Assembly (NCBI GenBank): GCA_003164895.1
Contig: PLUL01000039.1
Coordinates: 4,307 to 68,306 of the forward strand
Direction: 5' to 3'
DNA: 64,000 bases
From: Bacteroidota bacterium
GTDB lineage: Bacteria > Bacteroidota > Bacteroidia > Palsa-948
Shown here: positions 6,547 through 63,499 of the stretch, piece after piece
Position numbering within the stretch: position 1 is the first letter of the stretch
How the letters are laid out: every line of letters begins with the position of its first letter
Position numbers and translations under genes: made by a program
Notes under the pieces: model-generated
What the model was told of the DNA's origin: nothing
The model's database searches: none
Seen by the model: only the letters and a program-made list of their open reading frames with translations

Positions 6547-9429
6547 CTATTGAATCTTTACAATCTTAGCATTTCTCACCATATCTCCAGAACGTACTTC
6601 TATTAAGTAAACTCCGTTGGTCAAACCACTGATACTTAGTTGCTCCGAGAAATTCTCATTAGCAAAAACAATCTTATCCATCACTTTCTGACCGAACATA
6701 TTGATAATGCTCACTTGCAGATTTGCTGCTACAGAAAGTGTTCCCTCTATGAAAATATAATCGTTTGCAGGATTAGGGAACACCTTGATAGTTCCGTTAT
6801 CCGTTAAGGTAGAAATACCGGTTGGGGAAGAAATAGTAACCGAAGCAATGGTCATACAACCAATAGCATCCGTTACCTGCACAGAATAAGTACCTCTTGG
6901 AAGACCGGAAACACTTTGAGTAGTTGCTGCCAAAGGACTCCATTGATAAGTATATGGCGCACTTCCACCAGTTGGTGTTGCAGTTGCACTTCCATCAGCA
7001 CAAGAAAAACAAGTAGCGTTGGTAGATGTTACAGAAACAGTAAGCAATGGACTAACTGTTATAGCGTGACAACTTGCCAAACTTGTTCCGCATGCATTAC
7101 TTGCAGTTACACATACATTACCGGAAGTGCTTCCAAAATTTACTGTAACAGAATTCGTTCCTTGCCCTGAAACAACATTTCCTCCGGTAGGTGCTGTCCA
7201 TGTATAGGATGTAGCATTGGTAACAGGAGCAATAGAATAGTTTCCTGAACCTGCATTACATACTGTTGTTGCTCCGGTTATTCCACCGGGTATTGCAGGT
7301 GCAATCGGTGAAATCATTACCGCTAAACAGTTTGGAGCACTTGTACTGCAAGAGTTACTTGCATCTACACAAATATTTCCTGAAACATTTCCAAATGCTA
7401 TTGTGATTGTTGCAGTGCCTTGTCCTGCTGTAACTGTTGCGGTAGTTGGAACAGTCCAGTTATAAGAAGTGGCATTTGTAACCGAAGCTATAGAATAAGT
7501 AACTCCTGTTTGATTTGCACAAGCCGATGTTGGTCCAGTAATCGAACCTACAATTCCAACTGCTGCTGCTGCATCTACAGTTATTGTTTGGCAACTTGCC
7601 AAACTTGTGCCGCAAGCATTTCCTGCTGTTACACAAACCGTTCCTGATGTTGCTCCAAATGTTACAGTAGCAGTTGATGTTCCTTGTCCTGCCGTAATAG
7701 TTGCCGTTGCAGGAACTGACCAAGTATAAACAGTCGCATTAGCAACACTTGTTATAGAGTAAACAACTCCTGTTTGTCCACTACAAACCGTTGTTGGACC
7801 CGTTATTGCTCCGGGAATTCCGGGAGCAGTAGGAGCTACATTTATTACTAACGTCTTTGGCGGACTTGTACTGCAATTATTACTTGCTGTTACACTCAGT
7901 GTTCCCGATGTAGTATATGATACTGTAACGGTTTGGGTGCCTTGGCCCGCCGTGATAGTCGCTGTTCCAGGTACAGACCAATTATAACTTGTCGCATTCG
8001 TTACAGTTCCGATTGTATAGTTTACACTCTGTCCTGAACATATGGCTGTCGGTCCCGTGATCGTTCCTACTGCTCCTACATTCGCACTTGGATCTACTGT
8101 TACTGCCAAACAATTTGTTGCGCTTGAACCGCAGGCATTACTGTCCGCTACGCATACTGTTCCGGATGATGCTCCAAATGTTATTGTTACCGATCGTGTT
8201 CCTTGTCCCGCTGTTATCGTTGCTGTTGCCGGAACGGTCCAGTTATAATAGGTCGTATTTGTTACTGCTGTAATTGAATACGCTGCTGTTGCTCCCGTAC
8301 ACACTGTCGTTGCTCCAGTGATTGCTCCTGCTATCGCCGGGATCGAAGGGGATACGGTGACTGTTTTACAAACTGACGCACTGCTATTGCAACTATTACT
8401 TGCTGATACGCAAACATTACCATTGGTAGCTCCAAAACTTACTGTAACAGATGTTGTTCCTTGCCCTGCAGTTACAGTTGCCGATCCTGTTGTTGTCCAA
8501 GTATAAGTAGCAGCATTAGCAACAGGTGCTATTGAATAAGTAATACCTGTTTGATTTAAACATACAGATGATTGTCCCGTAATTGTTCCTACTGTTCCTA
8601 CTTGCGGTGTTGGATTTACTGTTACTGCCACACAGGTTTGAGTACTTGCTCCGCAGGCATTGCTTGCAGAACAGCAAACATTACCAGAGAGTGATCCCAT
8701 AGTTACTGTAAGATTTCTTGTTCCCTGCCCAGCAGTTATTGTAGCACCTGTAGGTACAGTCCATGTATAAACAGGAGTACCGGCAATAGTAGGAACAGAA
8801 TAAGTTAATCCTGCTTGTCCGCTGCAAACAGTTCCAACTCCCGTTCCGGTGATTGGACCCGGTGTAGGAGGTATTGCTGTATTAATAGTTACCGTAACAT
8901 TTGCTGTGCTTGTACATCCACCTACACTTGTGCCTGTAACAGTATATACAGTTGTTACTGTAGGACTTGCCACCACAGTAGCTCCAGTTGTAGTATTCAA
9001 CGAAGCTGCCGGCGACCAAGAGTAAGTATTTGCTCCGCTCGCAGCGAGTGTAGATGAACCAACTGAACAAATACTACCGGGCGAAGCTGTAGCAGTTACT
9101 GTAGGAGTTGCTAATACTGTAATGTAATTTAATTTTATCAGGGTGTCTGGTCCGCTGCCATTTGTAGCAATTACAGAAACAGTATAAACTCCAGGCAAGT
9201 TATATGTTCTTGGTCCAGGCGCTGCAGATCCTGATGTAGGACTAGTTGCTCCAACAAAAGACCATGCATAGGTAATAGGACCCGCACCGGTAGTAAGGTT
9301 GGACCATGTTACAGATTTTCCTGCACAAATGGTTGTTGGAGTTGCAGAAAAACTTGCAACCGGAACTTGTGCAAATGCACCGGAAATAAAACCTGCGCAA
9401 ATAAAAGCTGAGAGGAGAATTTTTTTCAT
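6547..9429 (-). CDS. Large repeat adhesin-like surface protein (PKD-like N-terminus, 7 Ig-like repeats, one SprB repeat, T9SS sorting domain)
   Basis: Signal peptide MKKILLSAFICAGFISGAFAQ, then a PKD-like segment (VASFSATPTTICAGKSVTWSN...GVYTVSVIATNGSG). Seven repeats follow of the form C-x-G/N-Q-x-G-x-x-YSI...NAT-x-Y-x-WTVP-x-x-ATITAGQGT-x-x-x-TV-x-FG...G-x-VCV-x-A-x-N-x-CG. One SprB-type repeat (CFSCADGSATATPTGGSAPYTYQWSP...TYSVQVTDAIGC) precedes the T9SS tail (VFPNPANDYIFIEG...GVYLIEVRSGDMVRNAKIVKIQ). Confidence 0.85.
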   Translation of the reverse strand: MKKILLSAFICAGFISGAFAQVPVASFSATPTTICAGKSVTWSNLTTGAGPITYAWSFVGATSPTSGSAAPGPRTYNLPGVYTVSVIATNGSGPDTLIKLNYITVLATPTVTATASPGSICSVGSSTLAASGANTYSWSPAASLNTTTGATVVASPTVTTVYTVTGTSVGGCTSTANVTVTINTAIPPTPGPITGTGVGTVCSGQAGLTYSVPTIAGTPVYTWTVPTGATITAGQGTRNLTVTMGSLSGNVCCSASNACGASTQTCVAVTVNPTPQVGTVGTITGQSSVCLNQTGITYSIAPVANAATYTWTTTGSATVTAGQGTTSVTVSFGATNGNVCVSASNSCNSSASVCKTVTVSPSIPAIAGAITGATTVCTGATAAYSITAVTNTTYYNWTVPATATITAGQGTRSVTITFGASSGTVCVADSNACGSSATNCLAVTVDPSANVGAVGTITGPTAICSGQSVNYTIGTVTNATSYNWSVPGTATITAGQGTQTVTVSYTTSGTLSVTASNNCSTSPPKTLVINVAPTAPGIPGAITGPTTVCSGQTGVVYSITSVANATVYTWSVPATATITAGQGTSTATVTFGATSGTVCVTAGNACGTSLASCQTITVDAAAAVGIVGSITGPTSACANQTGVTYSIASVTNATSYNWTVPTTATVTAGQGTATITIAFGNVSGNICVDASNSCSTSAPNCLAVMISPIAPAIPGGITGATTVCNAGSGNYSIAPVTNATSYTWTAPTGGNVVSGQGTNSVTVNFGSTSGNVCVTASNACGTSLASCHAITVSPLLTVSVTSTNATCFSCADGSATATPTGGSAPYTYQWSPLAATTQSVSGLPRGTYSVQVTDAIGCMTIASVTISSPTGISTLTDNGTIKVFPNPANDYIFIEGTLSVAANLQVSIINMFGQKVMDKIVFANENFSEQLSISGLTNGVYLIEVRSGDMVRNAKIVKIQ
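7048..8859 (-). repeat. Seven tandem ~86-codon coding repeats inside the adhesin gene
   Basis: Residues ~191-794 of the 960-aa product form 7 consecutive homologous units. Linkers alternate between P-x-A-I-P/A-G and A-x-VG-x-VG types, suggesting two-unit duplications. Confidence 0.8.
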
Positions 9430-9814
9430 GAAGTAGTTTTTAGAAAGTATGTGTATTTAGAATTTATTGTGCGCTTTTGAAATGGAGTGGTAAATGTAAA
9501 AATATATGATTATAATCATATTGAAATGCAATATTTTTTTTATGCACCGTTTTTTTTATTAATTATTGACGATTTTGTGTGATATATAATACAGATGTAA
9601 ATGATATTATAATAGTTGGGTAAAATAATGATTGATAAAAAATATTTTCTTCATCTGCCGAAATTCTAAAACACTTCATCGAAAAATATTTTTCACTCGT
9701 CTAAAATGAAGCATTATTCAAAGTTGCCACGCATAATATTTATTTTCTAAATCGTTTTACTGTAAAAAGAAACTCATGATACAAGTTGTACTCGGTGCTA
9801 AAAAATAAAACTAA

Positions 9815-10070: not shown

Positions 10071-10352
10071 GATGTTGCAAATGTAAAACAGTTATTCTCA
10101 AAACCAGAGGGCGTTGAAAAGTATTTGTTTGGGAATACAGCACAAAGGTTTATTATATGATGGCTATCATGTAATTTACATATAGATTCAGTAAAAAAAT
10201 GCTACTATTTTTCATTGGATTATACTTTTAATCTGAACCTGTAACACTAAAACATTACACTTGAGTGCAAAAAACTTTCATATAATTTGACTTTGATATG
10301 AATATTTATACCTTTACACTTCGTAAATACCCCTAATTCTAAAAACTATATC

Positions 10353-13310
10353 ATGAAAAAAATTTCTACGTTGTTTTGTATCGTGCTTTTTTCCTTTAAC
10401 ACTTCTATTCTGTTTGCCGGAAATAAATGCGAGGTTATTTTATCCGGTAACCATTCACCAAAATCATTCAAGATGGCTCCGAACGTGAAGGAAGGAGATT
10501 ATCTTCCTAATACAATTATTTTTAAAGTGAAATCTCAATATCGTCAAAACTGCAAAGGAAATTCAGTGGACAATCTTCTTCCATTACAGGATTTTTTTCA
10601 GAACGTAGGATTTCAAAATCTCGTAAAGATGTTCCCTAATGAACAAGTTCCATCAAAGGACAGAAATGAACTTGGACAAAAATTAGTTGATATCACACTT
10701 ATTTATTCTTTCAAATTTAATTCGAGTTTAAGTATTGAAAAAGTAATTAACGGTATGCTTTCGCTCGGCTATTTTGAATATGTAGAACCATGGTATGTTC
10801 CGAAAGTTACCCTCACTCCTAATGATCCTAATTTGCCTAATCAATATCATTTACTAGGAACTGGTGTTTTAGGTACCGGAAGTATCAATGCAGAAAATGC
10901 TTGGAACATTCAAACCGGAAATCCAAATGTTGTAATTGGGTTAACCGATACAGGAACCGAATTTACTCACCCTGATCTTGCCGCAAATGTTTACCAAAAC
11001 CCTGGTGAAACTGGTCTCGATGCGTTGGGAAATGACAAGCGCTACAATGGAATTGATGATGATGGTGATGGATATATTGACGACTATAGGGGATGGGATG
11101 TAGGGATGAATGATAATGATGCAACATACCAAGGAAATAATCATGGTGTTGCTACATCGGGTGATGCAGATGCGGTTACGAATAACGGAGTGGGAGTAGC
11201 AAGCCCCGGTTTCAATTGCAAATATATGATGTGCAAAATAGCCGATTCAACCGGTGCATTGGTTGCTGCTTATCAAGGCATTCAATGGCTGGCAAATTAT
11301 TCGGAAGCTCACGGTCATGGTAAGATTACAGTCATCAGCAATTCATGGGGAGGTTCAGGTGGAGGAGCGTTCGGACAAGACATCATTAATTACGCTGCTA
11401 TCAACAAAAACATTCTTATATGCGCTTCTGCAGGGAATAACGGAGCTCAGGATATCGTATATCCTTCTTCTTACAATAATGTTTACCGCGTGTCTGCATC
11501 CACTGCTACTGATGTGATGGCAGGTTTTTCATCCTATGGAGTTGATGTGGACTGGGCTGCACCCGGTAATAATATTTATTCCACTGTTAGCGGAGCTACT
11601 TGGGGATATGACAGTGGAACTTCCATGGCTTGTCCAATATCAGCAGGTACAGCAGGTATTGTTGAATCACAACTTAATTATATAGGTACAGGGAGTGGTT
11701 TTCAATTGGGCGAAAAAATTAAACAGACATGTACACCAATGACAAGCGATGCACAATATAATGCAGGAATGCTTGGTAAAGGAAGAATTGATATGTATAA
11801 AGCATTAACTCAAGCGGCAAAATCAATCATTGTAAATCCTGTTACTGTTACAGATAAAAACAGTAATCTATATCTGCCAGGAGATACATTGGATATCAGT
11901 GGAGTTTTTACCAATTATCTCGATCCATGCAGCAGTGCTGCTACTGCAACACTTTCTGTTGTTTCAGGACCCGGAACTGTAATAAACGGAAGTTTCAATA
12001 TTGGTGCACTGGCAACACTTGGATTAGATAGCAATACCATCACTCCTTTCACTGCTAAAATTAATACCAATGCGGCAGTTAATGCCGATATTAAATTTAA
12101 AATTCATATTGTGGACGGTACTTTTACAGGCGATACTTATTTTGATGTGCTGGTGAATGTGGATTATATTAACATTGCCATCAACGATGTATTTACCTCC
12201 ATCACCAGCAAGGGCAGAATCGGCTACAACCTCGATGCCCAAACACAAGGACTCGGCTTCCAGTATCAAGTTCCAAATCCTGCTGCCGATTTATTATACG
12301 AAATGAGTTTGATGATTGGTGTTTCTTCTACACAAGTTTCGGATATGTTTCGCGGAGCAAGCGTTGGAGATACAGATAATGTTGATTTGCAACGTGTGCA
12401 AAAATATCCAGCCATAGTTTCGGATTTTGATGCAGGCGGAAAATTTAATGATGCGCATTCTAATACAAGCAGCCCAATCCCTGTAGAGGTTCGTCATTAC
12501 GAATATGCTTGGAGCACGGCACCCTATAATAAATTTGTAATAGTAAAATATCATATCAAAAACACTGGAGCTTCCACGCTCAATAATTTGTATGCAGGTA
12601 TTATGGCTGATTGGGATGTTCCGAATGCAAATGCATCACAAGACAAAGGAGCTTATGATGCCCTAAACAAAATGGGATATTGCTGGTATGTTAATGGTCC
12701 ATTATATGCGGGAATAAAACTTCTTAGCAGTACGGCTCCTGCCAATAGTTATATTGTTGATAATGTGGCAACCGGCAATGGAGGAGTTGACGTAACAACT
12801 GCAAGCGGGTTCACTACTGCAATGAAATACACGGTGCTTTCCACACCAAGAAATAATGATGGATACCCTACAGCTGGAGGCGATGTAATGGATTGCTTGA
12901 GCAGTGGTCCATTTATGATTAATGCCGGAGACAGTGTAGAAGTTGCTTTCGCTTTAATCGGAGGCGATAATTTGTCCGACCTTCAGGTGAGTGCTTGTGC
13001 AGCGCAAAATAAATATGACAATACTTGTGCTATGGGTGTGAATGATCTCGAAACAAATAATTTCTGGATGTTCAATTATCCGAATCCTGCAACAAATTCA
13101 GTCAACATTAATTATAATGTTGTGGGATATAACAAAGCAGCAATCAGAATTATGAATACGCTTGGAGAAGTGGTGATGACGCTTGATAATATTCCAGTGG
13201 GAAGAAATAATCTTACGGTTGATGTGTCAAAACTCAGCAGCGGAAATTATTTTTATCAGATGAAAGCCGGCGAAGCTACATTGACAAAAAAAATAACGAT
13301 TGCAAAATAA
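10353..13310 (+). CDS. S8 family subtilisin-like serine peptidase with T9SS sorting domain (inverted paralogue of 1740-4688)
   Basis: Motifs GLTDTGTE, NHGVATSG, GTSMACPISAG are present. The C-terminus YPNPATNSVNINY...GNYFYQMKAGEATLTKKITIAK fits a T9SS tail. Residues ~55-150 are identical to the other copy. Confidence 0.9.
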   Translation: MKKISTLFCIVLFSFNTSILFAGNKCEVILSGNHSPKSFKMAPNVKEGDYLPNTIIFKVKSQYRQNCKGNSVDNLLPLQDFFQNVGFQNLVKMFPNEQVPSKDRNELGQKLVDITLIYSFKFNSSLSIEKVINGMLSLGYFEYVEPWYVPKVTLTPNDPNLPNQYHLLGTGVLGTGSINAENAWNIQTGNPNVVIGLTDTGTEFTHPDLAANVYQNPGETGLDALGNDKRYNGIDDDGDGYIDDYRGWDVGMNDNDATYQGNNHGVATSGDADAVTNNGVGVASPGFNCKYMMCKIADSTGALVAAYQGIQWLANYSEAHGHGKITVISNSWGGSGGGAFGQDIINYAAINKNILICASAGNNGAQDIVYPSSYNNVYRVSASTATDVMAGFSSYGVDVDWAAPGNNIYSTVSGATWGYDSGTSMACPISAGTAGIVESQLNYIGTGSGFQLGEKIKQTCTPMTSDAQYNAGMLGKGRIDMYKALTQAAKSIIVNPVTVTDKNSNLYLPGDTLDISGVFTNYLDPCSSAATATLSVVSGPGTVINGSFNIGALATLGLDSNTITPFTAKINTNAAVNADIKFKIHIVDGTFTGDTYFDVLVNVDYINIAINDVFTSITSKGRIGYNLDAQTQGLGFQYQVPNPAADLLYEMSLMIGVSSTQVSDMFRGASVGDTDNVDLQRVQKYPAIVSDFDAGGKFNDAHSNTSSPIPVEVRHYEYAWSTAPYNKFVIVKYHIKNTGASTLNNLYAGIMADWDVPNANASQDKGAYDALNKMGYCWYVNGPLYAGIKLLSSTAPANSYIVDNVATGNGGVDVTTASGFTTAMKYTVLSTPRNNDGYPTAGGDVMDCLSSGPFMINAGDSVEVAFALIGGDNLSDLQVSACAAQNKYDNTCAMGVNDLETNNFWMFNYPNPATNSVNINYNVVGYNKAAIRIMNTLGEVVMTLDNIPVGRNNLTVDVSKLSSGNYFYQMKAGEATLTKKITIAK

Positions 13311-30738: not shown

Positions 30739-31161
30739 ATGCGATTCAAAATTAAATTTCATCATTTGCTTCTTATGGGAGCTTTGATGTTCGGTTCTTG
30801 TCAAAAAGAATATGTAACACCTAAGCCATCTACACCACCACCACCACCCGGATCAATAAAATTTTCAGCAGATATTGTTCCAATCTTCATAACAAACTGT
30901 GGGAAATCAGGATGCCATGATGCTACTACTGATAAGGCAGGATTGAATTTATCTACTGCTGCTACAGCATATGAAGATCTTTTCGACAATAGTGAAATTG
31001 ATACAACAAATTTACCGAGCAGTGCTGCAACCAGTAATTTGTATATAAGAATGACGAGTACTAATACTCCTATGCCACCTCTTTCAGCAGGAGGCAAATT
31101 ATCGTCAACCGAAACAGATAAAGTTTTAGCATGGATAAAGGCAGGAGCAAAAAATAATTAA
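30739..31161 (+). CDS. Lipoprotein with planctomycete-cytochrome-c-like (PSCyt-type) domain carrying CX4CH instead of CXXCH
   Basis: Lipobox LMFGSC. IVPIFITNCGKSGCHD...LNLST...MPP...L...ETDKVLAWIKAGAKNN follows the PSCyt1-like pattern, but four residues separate the cysteines. Paralogue at 43194-43595. Confidence 0.55.
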   Translation: MRFKIKFHHLLLMGALMFGSCQKEYVTPKPSTPPPPPGSIKFSADIVPIFITNCGKSGCHDATTDKAGLNLSTAATAYEDLFDNSEIDTTNLPSSAATSNLYIRMTSTNTPMPPLSAGGKLSSTETDKVLAWIKAGAKNN

Positions 31162-32164: not shown

Positions 32165-32992
32165 ATGAAAAAATCAATTACCCTAACATTAGCAGGCATC
32201 GTTGCCATTGGAGCTATGTCGTTCGACATTTTAACGAGCAATGGAAAAGCAGGAAAGACCGGTGCATATACTGAAGGCAATTGCACAAGTTGCCACAGTG
32301 ATTATGCTGTCAATTCAGGACCTGGATCCATTGCGATTACATCCACTCCGTCACTTACAAACGGTTATGTTGCCGGAACTACTTATACAGTAAATGTAAC
32401 AGTAGCACAGTCAGGAGTTTCTCTTTTTGGATTTGATTTTGAAGCCTTAACAAATGCAACTACCAATGGAGGAACGCTTGCCGTTGTTTGTACTGATACT
32501 AAAACCTTAGCTTCATCAAGTCGGACTGATGTTGTTCACACAGGAACCGGTAATGCTACCGCAGATTCACATACATTTTCTTTTGTGTGGACCGCACCCA
32601 CCACTGGTACTAGCACCGTTACTTTCTATGCATCTGGAAATGCCGCTGATGGAGATGGATCAACAAGTGGTGACTATATATATACAACATCATTACCCAT
32701 TTCTAATGTTACCAGTGTAGAAGAAAACGTTGAAGCAAACTTTAACCTCTCAGTTTTTCCAAATCCGGTTTCTGATAATGTTAATGTTAAATTTACTTTA
32801 ATGGAAACATCTGATATTACCATTGATCTGATGGACATTAACGGGAACAAAATTGCCAATATTATTTCTGAAAACGGAATGAAAGGCGACATCAACAAAA
32901 CCTTTAATGTTTCTTCTTATTCCAAAGGAGTTTATTTTCTGCAAATAAAAAATGAGAAAGCATCATCTATTAAAAAATTAATTATTAAATAA
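32165..32992 (+). CDS. T9SS-sorted protein with N-terminal CXXCH-containing Reeler/DOMON-like beta-sandwich domain
   Basis: Signal peptide, GNCTSCHSDY (CXXCH) at the start of the mature domain, FSFVWTAPTTGTSTVTFYASGNAADGDG (Reeler-like pattern), and T9SS tail VFPNPVSDNVNVKF...GVYFLQIKNEKASSIKKLIIK. Confidence 0.6.
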   Translation: MKKSITLTLAGIVAIGAMSFDILTSNGKAGKTGAYTEGNCTSCHSDYAVNSGPGSIAITSTPSLTNGYVAGTTYTVNVTVAQSGVSLFGFDFEALTNATTNGGTLAVVCTDTKTLASSSRTDVVHTGTGNATADSHTFSFVWTAPTTGTSTVTFYASGNAADGDGSTSGDYIYTTSLPISNVTSVEENVEANFNLSVFPNPVSDNVNVKFTLMETSDITIDLMDINGNKIANIISENGMKGDINKTFNVSSYSKGVYFLQIKNEKASSIKKLIIK

Positions 32993-41659: not shown

Positions 41660-43120
41660 ATGAAAAATTTAAACAAAAAATTAGTGTCTGCCTTTATGAT
41701 GGGGGCATTCATTGTACTGGGGTTGTCGAATTGCAAAAAAAAGGATGAGGTACTTGACTTACCACCCGCACCCGCACCAACACCAGTATTAAATACTGAT
41801 ACTTTGTATTCAGTTCCTGGAACTGCCACACTTCAAGCAATAGGCGGAGCTGCGTGGGATGGTACAATTGAAGGAGTTTGGAATAATGCACCTGCATTAA
41901 ATGTAACCGGTACAGTGCCAGATTTAGGAAATGGAACTTTTACAGGATATGTTGGTAACAGTACTCAAATTAAATTACGTTCCTTATACGATGCGAGCAA
42001 TATTTATTTTCTTTTTGAATTTGCTGCTGACCGTCCGAACGTGCTAAGTGCACAATGGTATTTTAATCCAACAACACATCTTTGGGCGCAGGAAGCTACC
42101 GCTGCCAGTTTAACTAATTTGAATCCTGATGGAAGTTACAGACCTCCTTTTTCACAGGATGAAATTGTAATGATGTTTAATATTTCAGATGCAACATTTA
42201 ATACATTATCTTGTTATGCTGCTTGCCATGTCATGTCTTCGTATGGATATTCAGTTACACCTTCAGGCGGATACATGGCTACAAATGGTCCTAGTGAAAG
42301 ATTAGATGTGTGGAGAATGCGCACGTTTCAGACTATGCCTATGAACCAAGTAAATGACTGTTTTATTGATGATGGTTCAAGCATTGGATTAGGAGAAAGT
42401 GGTGTGTTAGATAAAAATATGGTTCACAGCGATTGGCAGGTAAATAATGGTCCGGCATCTTCTGTACCTCCAAGCTTACAATCACCTGGAGTAGTGGTAT
42501 CAGCACCTACTGCAACATCAAAAGTTTATGCAGCAGATGGAGGATTCAGCAATAAGCAAACATTAAAACTAAGCGGAGGATCAAATCCGGCGAATGCATT
42601 CCCTGCTGCTAATGGAGGAAAAGTATCGGTTCCAATTTGGGTAATAGAAGGTGCTGCCGGAACTAATCCATATAGCAGTAAACAAGGTGCAATCTTTACT
42701 TCAGATACCGGTGCAACAGCAGTTATGGTTATAGGAGTTGATTCTACTACAGGAATTTTACATCTAAAAGATGGAAATACTTTAGATCCTCGAACTTCAA
42801 CATCAGGTACTGCTTATCAGCAAGTAGGAACCGGAGATGGACCAAATTGTATTCCTGGTTCTATTGTTAGTGTATATACCGGTAGTCGTGGTGATGTAAC
42901 ATGTAATGGATTTTGGACAGGATCAGGTTGGAGATTCTTATTCAAACGTGCATTGAAAACAAGTGATAATGTTAATGACGTTGATTTCTCTTCTCTTGGC
43001 AATCAGCCATTTGGTGTTGGCGTAATGTTTAACGGCGCTGATAACGAACATGCTATTGTAGCTGGCTTGACATTGCATTTTGGTCAAAGAGGAAGTGCTC
43101 GTATTAAAAAAACAAAATAA
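41660..43120 (+). CDS. Lipoprotein with ethylbenzene-dehydrogenase-like (EB_dh, DOMON superfamily) haem-binding-type domain
   Basis: Lipobox GLSNC. Segments fit my recollection of the EB_dh family pattern: WNNAPALNV...IKLRSLYDASNIYFLFEF, LDVWRMR, GWRFLFKRALKTSDNVNDVDF, GVGVMFNGADNEH. It contains CYAACH (CX3CH). Confidence 0.5.
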   Translation: MKNLNKKLVSAFMMGAFIVLGLSNCKKKDEVLDLPPAPAPTPVLNTDTLYSVPGTATLQAIGGAAWDGTIEGVWNNAPALNVTGTVPDLGNGTFTGYVGNSTQIKLRSLYDASNIYFLFEFAADRPNVLSAQWYFNPTTHLWAQEATAASLTNLNPDGSYRPPFSQDEIVMMFNISDATFNTLSCYAACHVMSSYGYSVTPSGGYMATNGPSERLDVWRMRTFQTMPMNQVNDCFIDDGSSIGLGESGVLDKNMVHSDWQVNNGPASSVPPSLQSPGVVVSAPTATSKVYAADGGFSNKQTLKLSGGSNPANAFPAANGGKVSVPIWVIEGAAGTNPYSSKQGAIFTSDTGATAVMVIGVDSTTGILHLKDGNTLDPRTSTSGTAYQQVGTGDGPNCIPGSIVSVYTGSRGDVTCNGFWTGSGWRFLFKRALKTSDNVNDVDFSSLGNQPFGVGVMFNGADNEHAIVAGLTLHFGQRGSARIKKTK

Positions 43121-43193: not shown

Positions 43194-43595
43194 ATGAAAA
43201 AAGCACTAATATTTATGACTGCAGTGGGCATGTTGTTAATTGCTGTTGTAACAGGTTGTCAAAAAAACGCAACATTTATTTACAAAGCCCCGACAGTTGT
43301 AGTTACTACTCCGGTTTCTTTTAGTAAAAATCTGGTTCCACTTTTTACTGCAAATTGTGCTCTGAGCGGTTGTCATGTATCAGGAGGTCAGACTCCGAAT
43401 TTAACGGCAGCTTCAGCATACGCATCGTTATCAGGCGGCAATTTTTTTAATGTTAGCAATCCGTCAAGCAGCATAATATACGAGCGATTAACAGGAACAC
43501 TTACTCCGGAAATGCCTTTTGGAAAACCCAATAACCCATCCAACATTAATGCTCTGGTATTGGCGTGGATTACACAAGGAGCAAAGAACAATTAG
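43194..43595 (+). CDS. PSCyt-like lipoprotein with CX4CH motif (paralogue of 30739-31161)
   Basis: Start taken at ATG 43194 (MKKALIFMTAVGMLLIAVVTGC, lipobox). Also LVPLFTANCALSGCHVSGGQTPNL...PEMPFG...ALVLAWITQGAKNN. The longer ORF-track start overlaps the upstream gene. Confidence 0.55.
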   Translation: MKKALIFMTAVGMLLIAVVTGCQKNATFIYKAPTVVVTTPVSFSKNLVPLFTANCALSGCHVSGGQTPNLTAASAYASLSGGNFFNVSNPSSSIIYERLTGTLTPEMPFGKPNNPSNINALVLAWITQGAKNN

Positions 43596-43620
43596 GAAAA
43601 AACAATTAAAAAATAATAAA

Positions 43621-44535
43621 ATGAAAAAAAATATAAAACAATTTGCAATCTGGATGCAAATAGGAATAGTTGCCTATTTGCTATTTGCAATTGGTAATAA
43701 TGTCTGCGCACAGGATAGCACCTCAGCTAAATCTGTAGCTAAGATAGAAAGAGTAAGAAATACTTTTCTTGGCAATATGCTTATTGATAATCAAACGGTG
43801 ATGGTGCCAGTTAAAAAAACTTTTGAGTTTACTATTCAGCACCGCTTTGGAACTATCAATAACGGTTATACAGATATGTACGGACTATTTGCCACTGCCA
43901 ACATGCGCTTGGGATGGAATTATACTCCTATTGATAATTTGCAATTAGGTGTTGGAATATGCAAGGAAAATATGCAGTGGGATGGCAGTGTTAAATATGC
44001 AATTACCAAACAAGCTGTATCTCACGGTTGTCCGGTAAGCGTTACTTATTTTGGAGATATGGCGGTGTCAACTCTTCCGCTGAAAGGAAATTTTGCAAAT
44101 GATGCCGACAGAATTTCGTATTTCAATCAATTAATTGTAGCTAGAAAAGTTACAAGTCATTTTTCAGTTCAGGTGTCACCAAGTTTATCTTATTATAATA
44201 ATGTGGCAGGATATATGAGTGCCGAAGGAACTGTTAAACCAACAATGAATAATGCTCAGCTTTCTGTTGCTACAATGGGTTGTTATATGATTACCGGTGG
44301 AATGGGTATTATTGTTGACTACGATCAGCCGCTTACTCAAAACCCAACTAATAATCCATGTCCCAACGTAAGTTTTGGAATTCAGTTTGCAACCATTACT
44401 CACACATTTCAGGTATTTCTTGGAAACTTCCAAGGTATTCTTCAGCAGTCAAATAATTTCTTTAACCAAAATGATTATACACAAAGCAGATATTTAATAG
44501 GATTTAATATTACTAAACGTTGGAATTATTTTTAA
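43621..44535 (+). CDS. Outer-membrane beta-barrel protein (HRFG-motif family), second copy
   Basis: Start taken at ATG 43621 (MKKNIKQFAIWMQIGIVAYLLFAIGNNVCAQ). Also FEFTIQHRFG, RISYFNQLIVARK and C-terminal FNITKRWNYF. Confidence 0.6.
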   Translation: MKKNIKQFAIWMQIGIVAYLLFAIGNNVCAQDSTSAKSVAKIERVRNTFLGNMLIDNQTVMVPVKKTFEFTIQHRFGTINNGYTDMYGLFATANMRLGWNYTPIDNLQLGVGICKENMQWDGSVKYAITKQAVSHGCPVSVTYFGDMAVSTLPLKGNFANDADRISYFNQLIVARKVTSHFSVQVSPSLSYYNNVAGYMSAEGTVKPTMNNAQLSVATMGCYMITGGMGIIVDYDQPLTQNPTNNPCPNVSFGIQFATITHTFQVFLGNFQGILQQSNNFFNQNDYTQSRYLIGFNITKRWNYF

Positions 44536-48493: not shown

Positions 48494-48568
48494 TTGTGAA
48501 AATTTTTAAAGCACTTAATAATAGAATGAGAGAAATGAATAAAGATAATAGTCGTCAGCTAATTGTTT

Positions 48569-49030
48569 ATGCAACTTGAAAAAGAAATACACCAAGTCAG
48601 ACCATTCAGGAATGATTATCATAAAGCCACAGTTAATCTTATTTATTCCGGCAAATGGGTTTTGCAGTTTGTTACGGATTTTCTGAAGCCATATAAATTA
48701 ACTCTCCAGCAATATAATATTCTTCGCATTTTACGTGGAAAATATCCTGAAGCTATTACGGTAACATTTATTCGTGATAGAATGCTTGATCGGATGTCAG
48801 ACGCGTCAAGGTTAGTCGAACATCTCAGAAAAAAAGAATTGGTTATAAGAACTACTGCAGGTTCTGACAGGCGCAGAATGGATGTTGTAATTACTGAAAA
48901 AGGACTTGCCTTGCTTGAGGAAATTGAAAAAGAAAATGATCAAATGGATAAACGGCTTGCGACCTTAGATGAACAAGAAGTTGTTCAATTGAATTTTCTC
49001 CTCGATAAACTCAGGAATATCTTGCCTTGA
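48569..49030 (+). CDS. MarR family transcriptional regulator (paralogue of 36936-37424)
   Basis: MQLEKEIHQVRPFRNDYHKA... The first ~70 nt are nearly identical to the other copy. Start taken at ATG 48569 rather than the upstream TTG. Confidence 0.8.
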   Translation: MQLEKEIHQVRPFRNDYHKATVNLIYSGKWVLQFVTDFLKPYKLTLQQYNILRILRGKYPEAITVTFIRDRMLDRMSDASRLVEHLRKKELVIRTTAGSDRRRMDVVITEKGLALLEEIEKENDQMDKRLATLDEQEVVQLNFLLDKLRNILP

Positions 49031-49285
49031 TTTAATTTATTTATTATTTCCGTATCCCGCATCCCTTCTTCTTTATTAATTGCGATATTTTCTAAATCCA
49101 AAAACGAGTATTCAATTTCGTTTTTCTGTAGTATTTGTTTTGCTAATTTTCCCTGATAAATAACAAGTATTTAGCTAATCAAAATCATTGGAGGATTTTG
49201 ATTATATGATGTGATTTGCAAATTATTAATCAGAAAAAAAGTTCCTAATTCAAAAAAAACAGAAAAATATTTCATCAAAATTCTT

Positions 49286-49303
49286 AACTGATAATTATCA
49301 GTT
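49286..49303. promoter_or_regulatory. Perfect 18-bp palindrome AACTGATAATTATCAGTT (TGAT-N4-ATCA box)
   Basis: Perfect inverted repeat in the 481-bp leader, 209 nt upstream of the ATG at 49512. Confidence 0.5.
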
Positions 49304-49511
49304 CAATGACATGGAATAAATATTCTTCACTATGAAACCATTTTCAATGATGCAATTTCGATTCGAAACTTGTCTATTTCTCATATTAAAAAGTGATATA
49401 AAACAAATTTTTTACTAATCAAAGTCATTGTGAGGGTCTATCACTTTTCCCAATATTGCGCAATAATTTAATGAATAAAAAAAATAAAACAACAACCAAA
49501 TACTTTTACCT

Positions 49512-52346
49512 ATGAAAAAGTTAATCTTTACATTAGTCTCGCTCGCGAGTGCAGTGCTGATTATTTTCAGCACGTTCTCCTTGTCTCATTCAAGGAGTCA
49601 GAAATTAGTTCCCTCCGCCAGATCGGGAGGACCAGCATCAGGACCGGATGGTGGGCAATCATGTACTGCTTGCCATTCCTCGTATTCGAGTTCATTTGCA
49701 AAAACAGGATGGATCACTTCAGATATTCCTGGAAATGCCTATGTGCCTGGAGCAACTTATAATATTACTGTTACAGTAAATTCTAAAGGTTACAAACATG
49801 GCTTTGAAACAAGCTGTCAAACAGCAACAGCATGTGTAGGAACCTTTATCTCGAATGATTCAACACAAGTACTTTATGCTGGAACAAATTCATGGATTAC
49901 ACACTTAGATAGCATTACTGCCATGCAACGTGTTCCACAAATTGTTCCTTGCCAAAAAGGTTTCTATGGAACTCATCATAATCAAAATTCCCATTCTTGG
50001 ACATTCCAATGGACAGCTCCAACTGCTGGCACAGGCACAGTAACAATTTATTCAGCAATGGTTGCAGCAAATGGAAATGGAAGCGATAATTTAGCTGCCT
50101 ATCCACAAACATCTTGGAAAGGTGATTCTGTATTTACTTCTTCACTTGCACTTACAGAAAATACTACAGCAAATTTTTCAAGTATTGTAAAACCATGCGG
50201 AAGTTCCAGTAATGGTTCGGCAACAGTTAACGCTACCTTTGGAACGGGTCCTTATACATATTTATGGACACCTTCTGCTCAAACAACTTCTAATGCTACG
50301 GGTTTGGCAGCAGGTAATTACACTGTTAGTGTTCATGATGCTTTATCTGCAAGTATGAATTTGCATTTAACATTACAAAACGGCGTAAGTGCAATAATAA
50401 ATGATCAAAATACACCAAGTTGCCCAGGTGCAATTGCCACACATGCTGTGCTTGCTTTGGGTGGAACAACTCCTTATACATATTTATGGAGTGGTGGTGG
50501 ACAAACCACTTCATCGGTTACTGGTTTAATTCCTGGAACATATTCAGTTACAATTACGGATGCGGCTGCTTGTTCCACTATATATACTTTTAATGCAACA
50601 GATAAACAAGCTTTTTTTACTTATTTCTATAACTGGCAGGATAGTAATGTAACTTGCAAAGGCGGAAACAACGGCTATGCAAAAATACAAACTCGAAATA
50701 ATATTACCGGTTCTTTAGCTTACTCATGGAATTCCGGTCAAACAACGCAGACAGTAACTAACTTAGCAGCAGGTACATATACCTGCACTGTAGTAAACAC
50801 AGGTACTGTTACCGGATGTACAACAACGGTAACTACTACATCCACAGTTACCATTACTGAACCGGCAGCGGCACTTACTGCATCAATAACAGCGCAAAAC
50901 AACGGTTGTAATAATGCAAATAACGGCACTGCAACAGCTTCTGGTTTTGGCGGAACTGCTCCTTATTCGTATGCTTGGAGTAATGGCTCAACAACTTTTC
51001 CAGTGCAAACCACACCAACGGCTACTGGTTTAGCACCAGGAAATTATTCTTGTACTGTAACTTGTTACGGTACATATGTAACTTCGCAAGATGTTCCTCC
51101 ACTACAAAGAGCAACTTCAAAAGTTGGTTCGTGTTATTCAATAGCTACTGTAACAATCACAAATCCCACAGCCCTTACTTCAACGGTTACCAGTACTAAT
51201 GCAAGTTGCAATATTTCTAATGGAACTGCAAGCGTTAGTGCATCGGGTGGAGCAGGAAGTTATACATATTTTTGGTCTAACTCACATACAACTGCAAGTA
51301 TAACAGGACTTAATGCTAATTCATACGGTGTTATTGTAACAGATGCCAACGGTTGCACTTCTGCAGGTGTTGCCAATGTTATTAACAATGGTGCTCCTAC
51401 TGCAACTGTAACACCAACTAATGCGTTGTGTCATGGCGGTAATGGCAGTGCAACGGTAGCAGCGAGCGGTGGAACCGGAGCATTCTCTTATGTATGGAGC
51501 AGCGGTTCAAGTACATCGGCAGCAAATAATCTTGCATCAGGAAATTACACAGTAACCGTTACCGATGCAAGTAGTTGCTCAACAACAACAACAGTAACTA
51601 TTACTCAGCCAACCGCTGTTACAGCATCCGCTTCAGTAACTGCAAATGTTAGTTGCAATGGTGGAAATGATGGCAGTGCAGCAGTAACAGCAGGGGGCGG
51701 TACTCCAACTTATAATTATGCTTGGAGCAATGGTTCACCAAATCCAAGTGCCGGGCAGCTTACTGTTGGAGGTTATACAGTAACTATAACTGATGCCAAC
51801 GGTTGTACAAAAATTGCTTCTGTAACAATTACTCAACCTATTGTTTTAACTGCTACAATGAGTTCTACTGACCAAACAGTTGCATCTCCTGCAAATGGAA
51901 CTGCAACAGCAAATCCATCCGGCGGATCAGGAGCATACTTATATGCTTGGAGTACAACTCCAGTGCAAACTACATCCACGGCTACGGATCTTGATGATGG
52001 AACTTATTCAGTAACTGTTACTGATGCTCATGGTTGTACACTTACAAATACCGTAGTTGTTCTCAGTACCGTGGGTATTAATACGATTGATTTGGAAAAT
52101 TCAGTTTCAGTGTTTCCTAATCCAAACCTCGGAGAGTTTAATATTACTCTGAATGCTTCTGTGAGCAATAATTATGTGATTGAAGTGCGAAATTTGCTAG
52201 GACAAGTAATGTATAACGAAACATTGACAAACTTTAGTGGTAATTACATTAAACATCTTGATGTAAAAACTTATGGCGGAGGAATTTATTTCTTGAATAT
52301 CCGAAGCAATGAAAATCAAGTGGTGCGCAAGGTGGTTGTGAACTAA
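49512..52346 (+). CDS. Large T9SS-sorted surface protein: CXXCH Reeler/DOMON-like N-domain + ~8 SprB repeats
   Basis: Signal peptide, GGQSCTACHSSY, WTFQWTAPTAGTGTVTIYSAMVAANGNG (same domain as 32165-32992). About 8 repeats follow of the type C-x-G-x-x-NG-x-A...GG-x-x-PY-x-Y-x-WS...GTYSVTVTDA-x-GC. T9SS tail VFPNPNLGEFNITL...GIYFLNIRSNENQVVRKVVVN. Confidence 0.7.
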   Translation: MKKLIFTLVSLASAVLIIFSTFSLSHSRSQKLVPSARSGGPASGPDGGQSCTACHSSYSSSFAKTGWITSDIPGNAYVPGATYNITVTVNSKGYKHGFETSCQTATACVGTFISNDSTQVLYAGTNSWITHLDSITAMQRVPQIVPCQKGFYGTHHNQNSHSWTFQWTAPTAGTGTVTIYSAMVAANGNGSDNLAAYPQTSWKGDSVFTSSLALTENTTANFSSIVKPCGSSSNGSATVNATFGTGPYTYLWTPSAQTTSNATGLAAGNYTVSVHDALSASMNLHLTLQNGVSAIINDQNTPSCPGAIATHAVLALGGTTPYTYLWSGGGQTTSSVTGLIPGTYSVTITDAAACSTIYTFNATDKQAFFTYFYNWQDSNVTCKGGNNGYAKIQTRNNITGSLAYSWNSGQTTQTVTNLAAGTYTCTVVNTGTVTGCTTTVTTTSTVTITEPAAALTASITAQNNGCNNANNGTATASGFGGTAPYSYAWSNGSTTFPVQTTPTATGLAPGNYSCTVTCYGTYVTSQDVPPLQRATSKVGSCYSIATVTITNPTALTSTVTSTNASCNISNGTASVSASGGAGSYTYFWSNSHTTASITGLNANSYGVIVTDANGCTSAGVANVINNGAPTATVTPTNALCHGGNGSATVAASGGTGAFSYVWSSGSSTSAANNLASGNYTVTVTDASSCSTTTTVTITQPTAVTASASVTANVSCNGGNDGSAAVTAGGGTPTYNYAWSNGSPNPSAGQLTVGGYTVTITDANGCTKIASVTITQPIVLTATMSSTDQTVASPANGTATANPSGGSGAYLYAWSTTPVQTTSTATDLDDGTYSVTVTDAHGCTLTNTVVVLSTVGINTIDLENSVSVFPNPNLGEFNITLNASVSNNYVIEVRNLLGQVMYNETLTNFSGNYIKHLDVKTYGGGIYFLNIRSNENQVVRKVVVN

Positions 52347-52365: not shown

Positions 52366-52399
52366 AAAAAAGTCCTCCGATTTTTCGGAGGACTTTTTT
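52366..52399 (+). terminator. Intrinsic terminator
   Basis: AAAAAGTCCTCCGA-TTTT-TCGGAGGACTTTTTT: 9-bp GC-rich stem with flanking A and T tracts, 20 nt after the stop. Confidence 0.75.
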
Positions 52400-52432: not shown

Positions 52433-53206
52433 ATGAACAATATTCAAAAACATAAATTGATTCACGGTTGGAATCCTGATTTACCAGACCATCGTGATTT
52501 TTTGTATGAAGCTCCTTCACTCATTTTGAAAATTCTTCCTCCATTGATTGATTTGCGTGCGCAGTGTCCGCCTGTGTTTGATCAAGGTGAATTGGGAAGT
52601 TGTACAGCGAATGCAATTGCTGCTGCGGTTCAGTTTGAGCAAATGAAACAAAAAGAAAAAAACTCATTTATTCCTTCTCGGTTATTCATCTACTATAACG
52701 AAAGATTTATTGAACATACTGTTAAATATGATAGCGGTGGTATGCTGCGCGATGGAATAAAAACTGTGAGTAAGCAAGGTGTTTGTTCGGAAAAAATATG
52801 GCCGTATAATATTTCTGAGTTTACAAAAAAACCATCCGCTCAATGCTACAAAGAAGCTCTAAAAAATGAAGTTTTGTCATATCACCGAATAGCTCAAACA
52901 TCGGAACAAATGAAAGCTTGCCTTACAGAGGGATATCCTTTTGTTTTCGGATTTTCTGTTTATGAAAGTTTTGAAAGTGAAGAAGTGGCAACAACGGGCA
53001 TTATGCCAATTCCTGCAAAGAACGAAAAGTTACTTGGCGGACATGCCGTGATCGCTGTAGGATATGATAATTCAAAACAAAGTTTTATTATCAGAAATTC
53101 TTGGGGAACGAAATGGGGAATCAAAGGATATTTTTATATGCCTTACTCTTACATAACCGATAGCAATAAATCCGATGACTTTTGGACCATACGATTGGTG
53201 GAATGA
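52433..53206 (+). CDS. C1 (papain) family cysteine peptidase, no detectable signal peptide
   Basis: Catalytic Cys motif DQGELGSCTANA, His motif GGHAVIAVGYDN, Asn/Trp motif IIRNSWGTKWG. Confidence 0.75.
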   Translation: MNNIQKHKLIHGWNPDLPDHRDFLYEAPSLILKILPPLIDLRAQCPPVFDQGELGSCTANAIAAAVQFEQMKQKEKNSFIPSRLFIYYNERFIEHTVKYDSGGMLRDGIKTVSKQGVCSEKIWPYNISEFTKKPSAQCYKEALKNEVLSYHRIAQTSEQMKACLTEGYPFVFGFSVYESFESEEVATTGIMPIPAKNEKLLGGHAVIAVGYDNSKQSFIIRNSWGTKWGIKGYFYMPYSYITDSNKSDDFWTIRLVE

Positions 53207-53530: not shown

Positions 53531-53956
53531 ATGAAAACAACTATTCAACCCCCAGTACTCATGACACTCCTTGTTATATGCGGAGCAATTTTGTTTATGT
53601 CATCAACCTTAAAAAAAGTTCAGCAAACAACACCATGGGTGGCACCTTCGTCGGCTGATACAATTAAAAATCCATTGAAAGGCAATGCACAAGCGGCAGA
53701 TGAAGGAAAAAAATTATACGCTCAGAATTGTGCAGTATGCCACGGCGACAAAGGAAAGGGAGATGGAATTGCAGCGGCAGGATTAAATCCTAAACCGGCA
53801 AATCACACTTCAGAAAAAGTTCAAATGCAAACTGACGGAGCAATTTTTTGGAAAATGACTACAGGAAGACCACCAATGGCATCGTATGCAACAACATTAA
53901 GCGTAACACAACGCTGGCAGTTGGTGAATTTTATGCGCACTCTAAAGAAAAAATAA
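53531..53956 (+). CDS. Class I monohaem cytochrome c
   Basis: CAVCHGDKGKGDG, GRPPMASY, WQLVNFMRTL; same family as 36402, 41120 and 46539. Confidence 0.8.
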   Translation: MKTTIQPPVLMTLLVICGAILFMSSTLKKVQQTTPWVAPSSADTIKNPLKGNAQAADEGKKLYAQNCAVCHGDKGKGDGIAAAGLNPKPANHTSEKVQMQTDGAIFWKMTTGRPPMASYATTLSVTQRWQLVNFMRTLKKK

Positions 53957-62474: not shown

Positions 62475-63386
62475 CTAATAAACCCAAGAAGGATTATTTT
62501 TTATTGATGGCTTACGTTTTTTTCCCTTAGCAGATTCTTTAAGAAGTTTTTTGTGAAAATTAAATGTCAGCACAGGCAGTGATGCGTGATTCACTACTTC
62601 CTCGGCAATACTGCCTTTAAATAAATGCGATAGTCCGTGTCTGCCATGTGTTCCTAATGCAATCATATCGGCTTTTGCATTTGCTGCAAAATCTCGGATA
62701 CCTTCATCCTTCGAGTAGGCATAATATATCTGCGTGGGACATTTATATATTTTATTGTGTTTCCAAAATTTTTCTATTTGTTTTTCGGTTTCGTGTGTTG
62801 ATTCAAAATCTACCATCGTTACAATTTTCATGAGCATCAGTTTGGCATTAAACATTGCGGATATTTTACTTACCGCAGGAAGTACCAATTCGGTTTCTTT
62901 TGAAAAGTCGGTTGCAAAAACAATAATAGATATTTTTGAACTCTTAATTTTATCTCTTACGGATAGAACCGGAATTTCTGCATTACGAATAACCCGTTCG
63001 GCATTGCTTCCTAAAAGTGATTCCTGAAAACCGCTGACGCCATGCGTACCCATCACAATCATATCGGCTTTATACTTTTTAGCCGACTCATAAATTTTTG
63101 AAGGCACGTTGCCAATCTCAATGGCATCAATAACTTTTACATTTTTAAATACTTTACTGTTTTTAAGTTTTGATATTCTCAATTTTGTAAACTTCATTAC
63201 CTCCATCATATAATGTGCACCTGCTGCTATCTTATTATCACCTTCAGGCGTTGGAGCTGAATAAGGTCCGTCCATTATGTGCAGAAGATGAATAGTTGCG
63301 CCTGTTTTTCCTGCGAGCATTACTGCATAATCATAAGCAACAGCGGCGTTTTCTGAAAAATCGGTAGGAACTAAAATGGTTTTCAT
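62475..63386 (-). CDS. Universal stress protein, tandem Usp domains
   Basis: Two Usp-type halves (ILVPTDFSENA...GTHGVSGFQESLLGSNAERVI and IVFATDFSKE...GTHGRHGLSHLFKGSIAEEVV). Start taken at ATG 63386. Confidence 0.8.
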   Translation of the reverse strand: MKTILVPTDFSENAAVAYDYAVMLAGKTGATIHLLHIMDGPYSAPTPEGDNKIAAGAHYMMEVMKFTKLRISKLKNSKVFKNVKVIDAIEIGNVPSKIYESAKKYKADMIVMGTHGVSGFQESLLGSNAERVIRNAEIPVLSVRDKIKSSKISIIVFATDFSKETELVLPAVSKISAMFNAKLMLMKIVTMVDFESTHETEKQIEKFWKHNKIYKCPTQIYYAYSKDEGIRDFAANAKADMIALGTHGRHGLSHLFKGSIAEEVVNHASLPVLTFNFHKKLLKESAKGKKRKPSIKNNPSWVY

Positions 63387-63499
63387 AATATCTTGGTTTG
63401 ATGTGTTGAACAAATATCTTAAATTTTTGACACAACGGAATGATAGAAATCAGTTCGGGAATGAAATTATAGTTTGAAAAAAAGAAGTAATAATGGAAA

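Follow-up and report, generated by a model that had tools for sequence, protein, structure and literature searches.

The window analysed here is a stretch of 64,000 nucleotides from a Bacteroidota bacterium (assembly GCA_003164895.1, contig PLUL01000039.1, positions 4,307 to 68,306 of the forward strand), the genome of which derives from peat metagenomes. Our subject is a gene on the plus strand at 49512-52346 of the window. It is complete and encodes 944 residues and a stop codon, beginning with MKKLIF. The encoded protein is a type A cargo of the secretion system known as type IX (T9SS) in which a choice-of-anchor V head is carried on a stalk of eight SprB-type repeats, and this architecture is secure. 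A Sec signal peptide is found at 49512-49592 (about residues 1-27, with inferred cleavage between LSHS and RSQ and a model helix at residues 2-24). It is followed by the head at 49593-50159 (residues 28-216), a Reeler-type beta-sandwich bearing the sole CxxCH motif of the protein, C51-T-A-C54-H55 (49662-49676). The other cysteines are paired cysteines of the repeats. The stalk (50184-52088, residues 225-859) is formed by eight contiguous repeats resembling immunoglobulin (Ig) and PKD domains, and the T9SS type A C-terminal sorting domain (52110-52343, residues 867-944) completes the protein. An earlier note on this DNA, made by a model from the letters, had described a 944-residue T9SS surface protein with about eight SprB repeats, and this description holds, with the signal peptide in addition.

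The head belongs to a catalogued family. Residues 36-193 match the NCBIfam model NF041895 (choice_anch_V) at 71.1 bits, where the cut-off is 42. A signal peptide in front, a Cys-Xn-Cys-His motif and a sorting signal at the end are shared with this family (with NF041894, MXAN_6652 family). Compared with a typical NF041895 member, the 944-residue protein adds the eight-repeat stalk, the head motifs GWITSD and KGYKHGFETSCQT, and two subfamily-specific inserts at about residues 133-158 and 194-203. A short paralogue of 275 residues, consisting of head and T9SS tail, is encoded on the plus strand at 32165-32992 within a cluster of genes for a CX4CH protein, a DUF5777 barrel and NrfCD-like proteins. 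It matches NF041895 at 99.8 bits and is 30% identical to the 944-residue protein (BLASTP, E=4e-16), which bears out the N-terminal homology claimed in the earlier note.

The fold of the head was assigned from an AlphaFold model built on 86 sequences, with a mean predicted local distance difference test score (pLDDT) of 75. It is a beta-sandwich with a less confident arm in front, and this arm bears the CxxCH motif. In a Foldseek search of the PDB, the top seven matches are F-spondin Reeler domains (PDB codes: 2zou, 3coo, 2zot; E 2.6e-5 to 1.7e-4, template modelling (TM) score on the target 0.6), with a sequence identity of only 14-17%. To our knowledge, an arm with CxxCH is missing from the animal Reeler domain, for which no cofactor is known either. 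The Pfam Reeler model PF02014 gives no match at E<=0.01 for the 944-residue protein itself, though its threshold is passed by several homologues and by a paralogue on another contig of this genome, C48 (24.1 bits against 21). In a comparison of the family profile with the sequences of solved structures, only the T9SS tail is matched, and nothing matches the head. The domain had been called Reeler/DOMON-like. The Reeler part of that description stands at the level of fold, and the DOMON part was rejected: hhalign gives a probability of 0.5% for the family profile against the EB_dh protein of the window, and DOMON proteins are missing from the 50 best structural matches of the head model.

The most striking feature of the family is its Cys-Xn-Cys-His site. 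In the 86-sequence head alignment, C51, C54, H55, Y83, G97, G110 and W167 are invariant, and Y77, H131 (His or Gln; about 90% conserved) and D205 are nearly so. The site is kept in 264 of 264 full-length family members examined, with one (9 members), two (206), three (16), four (31) or five (2) residues between the cysteines. The motif is exactly CXXCH in 78% of the members, and in 96% the cysteines have 2-4 residues between them, which is within what is known for haem c. All family members begin with a signal peptide, and in the mature protein the motif is close to the N-terminus. The universal retention of the cysteines and the histidine argues for a cofactor site. A beta-sandwich c-type cytochrome has one established precedent, cytochrome f, in which CXXCH is found about 20 residues from the mature N-terminus. 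In the 944-residue protein the motif cysteine is about 24 residues after the likely cleavage site, and cytochrome f is not one of the 50 structures that the head model matches best. For haem attachment, CcmC-like (250 residues) and CcmF-like (828 residues) frames of the system for cytochrome c maturation (Ccm) are side by side on contig C19 of this genome. CcmC and CcmF were found in 59 of 61 related genomes, and the sole genome with choice-of-anchor V genes and without them is 66% complete. Because nearly all relatives have them, this co-occurrence does not discriminate and carries little weight for haem attachment. The Ccm system reportedly recognises little besides the CXXCH motif (PMC4158909).

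The site can be read in ways other than a haem c for electron transfer, and the first of these is a fibrillar adhesin with a non-haem head. Here the cysteines would close a small loop by a disulfide bond, or build a Cys/Cys/His metal site, and thereby present the conserved histidine; the head would bind polysaccharide, mineral or cell, the stalk would give reach, and the redox neighbours would be incidental. The layout is the classic one for such adhesins, with a distal non-repeat tip at the N-terminus (residues 28-216), an Ig-like repeat stalk (residues 225-859) and a C-terminal anchoring end (residues 867-944). A loop of 1 to 5 residues that often changes in length is what one would sooner expect of a disulfide than of haem c. 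After the Reeler domains, the fold matches of the head are mostly Ig-like domains of Gram-positive adhesins and pilins, with copper-binding YcnI at rank 20 (a weak match), and known Reeler domains have no haem. The Reeler domain of F-spondin binds heparin. On the other hand, a histidine directly follows the second cysteine in all 264 members, which a structural disulfide does not need, and the spacing is exactly that of CXXCH in most of them. We consider the adhesin unlikely, though it is a serious alternative, and the gene neighbourhood discussed below bears on it as well.

The second possibility is a surface-tethered haem enzyme, either peroxidase-like or one that oxidises or reduces peat compounds, soluble or polymeric, with a five-coordinate haem that would react with a small molecule and would not shuttle electrons. 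The head has no invariant sixth ligand, since His131 varies with Gln, while Tyr83 is invariant; these features, the single haem-type motif and the peat setting would all suit an enzyme. However, no catalytic-residue pattern matching known haem enzymes is present, and no solved structure is related by sequence. We therefore give the enzyme only a slender chance.

The stalk and the secretion signal are clearly defined. The Pfam SprB model PF13573 matches at 162.8 bits (cut-off 28) in six stretches, and a hidden Markov model built from the clear repeats finds eight repeats of about 74 residues each, contiguous and without linkers, at residues 225-297, 299-371, 378-454, 462-558, 560-632, 635-706, 710-783 and 785-859. 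Repeat 4 contains an insert at 51051-51134 of the window (residues 514-541, or about 518-541), CYGTYVTSQDVPPLQRATSKVGSC. The insert is 56-66% identical in the homologues P0001 and P0002 and shares the motif SQDVPxxQRAxSxVGS with them; thus it is better conserved than most of the stalk. Among homologues, the best-conserved parts are the head (54-59% identity) and repeat 1 (62-68%). A model of a single repeat (76 residues, pLDDT 84) is an Ig/PKD-like sandwich. Its best matches are shaft domains of GhpA, the grappling-hook protein of Aureispira (PDB codes: 9flw, 9flp; TM score 0.61-0.63, 26-27% identity), and clostridial PKD domains, with weak E-values (0.07 in Foldseek for GhpA) that are expected at 76 residues. 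GhpA and the 944-residue protein both have extended Ig-like shafts in Bacteroidota, but GhpA is a giant multimeric hook without a CxxCH head. From typical domain sizes, we estimate that the eight-repeat stalk is roughly 25-30 nm long and would be non-conducting.

At the C-terminus, residues 867-943 match Por_Secre_tail PF18962 at 57.9 bits (cut-off 27), and TIGR04183 matches at 49.2 bits (cut-off 23), confirming the T9SS tail that had been proposed. Among the NCBIfam models, only that for type A matches, and none for a type B C-terminal domain does. The genome encodes the SprA translocon (SprA_N E=1.9e-153, in a 2,493-residue open frame), which is the only T9SS component we looked at. The same PF13573 repeats and the same secretion system are found in the gliding adhesin SprB of Flavobacterium johnsoniae and in other cargo with SprB repeats. 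SprB has about 6,500 residues and a type B C-terminal domain, and it moves along the cell. The 944-residue protein has a type A domain and a distinct head instead, and it has neither the type B domain nor the giant size of a mobile gliding adhesin.

The gene forms a transcription unit of its own. An intrinsic terminator, read directly from the sequence and not mentioned in the earlier note, follows on the plus strand at 52372-52399 (GTCCTCCG-ATTTTT-CGGAGGAC and then TTTTTT). Because the gene has its own leader and a strong terminator, we take it to be monocistronic. A consensus scan for sigma-70 promoters and terminators gave no enrichment and missed this evident terminator, and Bacteroidota promoters are outside the scope of that scan. 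The leader (49031-49511, plus strand, 481 bp, 25% GC) shows a diverged duplication within itself (49110-49430, period 240 nt), which includes a 37-nt direct repeat at 49154-49190 and, 240 nt downstream, at 49394-49430 (plus strand, 81% identical), as well as the pair 49110-49123 and 49350-49363. Copy 1 of the direct repeat holds two one-mismatch boxes, TGATAAATAACA and TAATCAAAATCA. Between the copies is a perfect, strandless palindrome of 18 bp, AACTGATAATTATCAGTT, at 49286-49303, with a TGAT-N4-ATCA core, 223 nt before the ATG. Rfam gave only sub-threshold chance matches to the leader. Directly 5' of the leader is a gene for a MarR-family regulator (48563-49030, plus strand; PF12802 29 bits, cut-off 27). 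The leader, its palindrome and the MarR gene are thus all as the earlier note had reported them.

The box has a wider distribution. TGAT-N4-ATCA occurs 7 times in the window where 2.4 are expected, and 6 of these are in 6,028 nt of intergenic DNA, where 0.27 are expected and where the count was reached in 0 of 2000 shuffles. Three boxes precede units of the redox island described below, at 254, 241 and 223 nt from the first ATG, the last of these before the 944-residue gene. At the homologue locus L002, a TGATCTATATCA box is found 134 nt before the ATG of the homologue. Other boxes are outside the island. Two (9507-9518 and 10158-10169) lie between divergent genes for large T9SS cargo, 6547-9429, with seven PKD_6 domains, and 10353-13310, and one (63441-63452) lies 28 nt before a tandem universal-stress-protein gene (62475-63413). 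Therefore the regulon of the box may reach beyond the redox island.

We favor a Crp/Fnr protein over MarR as the regulator because the palindrome has the geometry of an FNR/CRP site, because there are three Crp/Fnr genes in the window, and because L002 keeps the box without MarR. No MarR gene is present upstream of the homologues, and L001 and L002 have a short choice-of-anchor V gene in that position. Hence the MarR linkage seen here does not extend to the homologue loci. As a binding site, the palindrome resembles an FNR/CRP-type box more than a MarR operator. The palindrome at 49286-49303 is probably a Crp/Fnr-type operator, and the shared box before three island units suggests common Crp/Fnr control. 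Such a box in front of both this gene and the redox units is a point against the adhesin, in which those neighbours would be incidental.

The gene is located in a redox island, which extends over the plus strand of the window from 29.5 to 57.8 kb. The island contains the three Crp/Fnr genes, two MarR genes, two NrfC/NrfD-like pairs, two DUF5777 barrels, at least seven small c-type cytochromes, one EB_dh protein and two porin-like proteins. Small CX4CH proteins accompany DUF5777 barrels and choice-of-anchor V genes in the window (30739-31161), at L002 (444-905) and at the C48 locus L003 (5877-6806). The motifs of these proteins are CGKSGCH, CAVGGCH and CTMHGCH, and the match to PSCyt1 is borderline (21.4 bits against 22). 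Because the CX4CH proteins also carry it, an odd cysteine spacing is common to two families of one gene trio. The two NrfCD modules differ in composition. The second has an EB_dh protein, of the DOMON superfamily, near its DUF5777 barrel (41660-43117 and 43519-44535), and the first has the Reeler-fold choice-of-anchor V protein in that place. This arrangement of modules recalls animal ferric-chelate reductase 1, which combines Reeler, DOMON and cytochrome b561 domains.

These neighbours bear on a third alternative, a scavenger of metal or haem, in which the tethered head would hand iron, copper or haem to outer-membrane uptake with DUF5777 as the channel. T9SS export of haem-binding proteins does occur in Bacteroidota, HBP35 of P. 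gingivalis being one such protein. The pairing of the head with an outer-membrane barrel and the weak fold likeness to copper-binding YcnI would also fit. However, known haemophores bind haem non-covalently and without CXXCH, there is no TonB-dependent receptor, ABC importer or sign of Fur-type control near the gene, and the neighbours are respiratory-type proteins. Like the haem enzyme, a scavenger has only a slender chance in our judgement.

The family to which the head belongs is large. An exhaustive search found at least 1,711 representative clusters (50% identity, E<=0.001) that match the head. Most members have 260-290 residues and consist of head and tail. About 11% of the best 150 matches are longer than 450 residues, and 15 of the 89 choice-of-anchor V genes in the 61 related genomes are in open frames of at least 500 residues. 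Stalked members are therefore common, at 10-17% of the family. The stalks of the long forms are built of SprB, PKD_6, He_PIG, HYR or PKD domains, and in all of them the head is at the distal end. The state changes between long and short at least 13 times on a tree of 256 heads, so stalks have been gained or lost repeatedly. In the literature we found nothing on the function of choice-of-anchor V, DUF5777 or MXAN_6652, nor on T9SS-exported cytochromes. The family is catalogued and named and its function is uncharacterised, and the 944-residue protein is a further stalked member of it.

The closest relatives keep both the architecture and the setting. A clade of seven heads with 100% support unites the window head, P0001-P0003 and three short forms. 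P0001-P0003, the three closest homologues (53-59% identical), are all long proteins with SprB stalks, so the fusion is kept in them, which was one of the questions raised by the earlier note. The genes of P0001 and P0002 come directly after a short paralogue. At L002 the genes run from the DUF5777 barrel through the CX4CH protein and the short head protein to the long head protein; at L001 a short head protein is directly upstream of the long one, and a longer contig of P0001 has genes for cytochrome c, EB_dh and DUF5777 proteins downstream. On the second question, the linkage to cytochrome genes, the answer is mixed: the two readable loci lie beside the trio of short paralogue, CX4CH protein and DUF5777 barrel, and few long forms elsewhere are near a DUF5777 gene, as described below. 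Among the 61 relatives, 19 of the 89 choice-of-anchor V genes are within 10 kb of a DUF5777 gene (by our own rough estimate, fewer than 1% would be expected by chance). Such enrichment beside DUF5777 and cytochrome genes, the closest homologues included, is a further point against an adhesin with incidental neighbours. Short choice-of-anchor V genes often form tandem pairs or triplets in the same-genus genomes G001, G002, G003, G007 and G008 (those of G001:C7 at 21418, 22455 and 23378, for instance). Such arrays are consistent with the long form having arisen from one copy of a tandem duplication that acquired a stalk; in L002, likewise, the short and long genes are neighbours.

There are four choice-of-anchor V genes in this genome. 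One of them encodes a second fusion of head and SprB repeats, of 809 residues, on the minus strand of contig C48 (L003:3899-9296). It has a choice-of-anchor V head, three SprB repeats, an extra domain of about 250 residues and a T9SS tail. A neighbouring 309-residue lipoprotein repeats that extra domain and ends in a PSCyt1-like CX4CH module. Other neighbours are a putative YceI-like protein of 184 residues and a DUF5777 barrel that is extended at its C-terminus by an apparently SH3-like segment, both judged by eye.

Taken together, we suggest that the 944-residue protein is a stalk-mounted surface redox head, probably bearing haem c, that extends the reach of the outer-membrane electron-transfer proteins of the island by tether movement. 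We put this reading at about an even chance of being right. The protein would be exported over the inner membrane by Sec and would then cross the outer membrane through the T9SS by means of its type A C-terminal domain. If it behaves like the type A cargo that has been characterised, the protein would lose this domain by cleavage and become anchored to the outer membrane. A single covalent haem c may be added in the periplasm by the Ccm system of the genome before T9SS export. The centre of the head would be the Cys-Xn-Cys-His site, backed by Tyr83, Trp167, Tyr77, His131 and Asp205, and the SprB stalk would keep the N-terminal head away from the cell. The 944-residue protein would then be the long-reach version of the short head-and-tail paralogue of the same island (32165-32992), which may act as a membrane-proximal partner. 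On a flexible tether, the head could alternate between membrane-proximal donors and distant partners. The putative donors are the short paralogue and the DUF5777/cytochrome units, which the NrfCD-like modules would supply from the quinone pool. The partners may be particulate or polymeric, for example the humic matter or iron minerals of peat. Transcription would be separate, and it is probably co-ordinated with the island through the FNR/CRP-type TGAT-N4-ATCA box.

Several observations weigh against this reading, and most of them concern the site itself. The cysteine spacing has changed at least 26 times on the head tree, and even within the closest clade the window protein has CX2CH (CTACH) where 6 of 6 relatives have CX3CH (CWTGCH). 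Such lability is unusual for haem c sites and weakens a plain haem c reading. Sites with one or five intervening residues are reported to be poorly matured in studies of Ccm variants. The head alignment has no invariant distal Met or His, and H131 is replaced by Gln in the two closest homologues, P0002 and P0003. The forms with one and five residues, the lability and the lack of an invariant distal ligand leave a non-haem Cys/Cys/His site in play. We know of no haem-binding member of the Reeler fold. In addition, one haem on an insulating stalk of 25-30 nm cannot relay electrons without large tether movements. We found no work in the literature on haem, localisation or electron transfer for any family member. 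In the metatranscriptomes only two short contigs (96% identical) fall within the stalk region of the gene, which is too little to judge expression or co-regulation.

The distribution of the gene counts against the same reading, and it favors the adhesin. Only 3 of the 15 long forms are within 10 kb of a DUF5777 gene, so most long forms, 12 of 15, have no such link to DUF5777 or cytochrome genes; a redox linkage of long forms in general, about which the earlier note had asked, is not supported. The gene is also sporadic among close relatives. The nine other genomes of the same family have no orthologue of the 944-residue protein, and thus the gene does not belong to the core of the island. G002, a genome of the same genus, offers only heads at about 30% identity. 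In a scan of species genomes with the full protein, 30 of 30 loci match the SprB stalk only (query residues 203 onward) and none is an orthologue of the head. The GC content at third codon positions of the gene is 0.22, against 0.25-0.31 for its neighbours, and so there is no sign of a recent foreign origin. Since orthologues are absent from the same family and from the species-genome scan and there is no such sign of transfer, the gene is best seen as an accessory, sporadic addition to a conserved island.

A surface redox head would share part of its logic with the known systems for extracellular electron transfer, MtrC/OmcA with the MtrAB porin, and Cyc2. These also combine an outer-membrane barrel, periplasmic cytochromes and a surface haem protein in a quinol-linked island. 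However, they are multihaem or porin-fused, depend on type II export or BAM insertion, and have no stalk. The 944-residue protein has one motif instead of several haems, T9SS export and a long insulating stalk. In its boldest form, the proposal is that the choice-of-anchor V head represents a new class of Reeler-fold monohaem c-type cytochromes, and that the protein is a tethered shuttle on a stalk of about 30 nm which carries electrons from membrane-proximal donors to particulate acceptors, that is, T9SS-dependent extracellular electron transfer in Bacteroidota. We think it rather improbable that all of this is correct.

If the head carries haem, there would be a very widespread and unrecognised class of all-beta surface cytochromes in Bacteroidota and other phyla. 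The stalked forms would show how a one-haem protein can reach past the cell surface, with a bearing on carbon and iron turnover in peat and soil. If it carries none, the family still leaves a large set of surface proteins, all with the invariant Cys-Cys-His site, to be explained. Haem binding is thus a question for the whole family, and the 944-residue gene adds little beyond it, being an accessory and species-specific stalked member.

Downstream of the terminator, and before the next cytochrome unit, there is a gene for a papain-family (C1) peptidase without a signal peptide (52433-53206), for which we found no link to the 944-residue surface protein. The cytochrome c gene that comes after it (53531-53956) includes a segment, 53560-53749, that is 100% identical to a 190-nt peat metatranscriptome contig with a depth of 38, from the same sample as the best DNA holder. 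Thus, this cytochrome gene is transcribed in situ.

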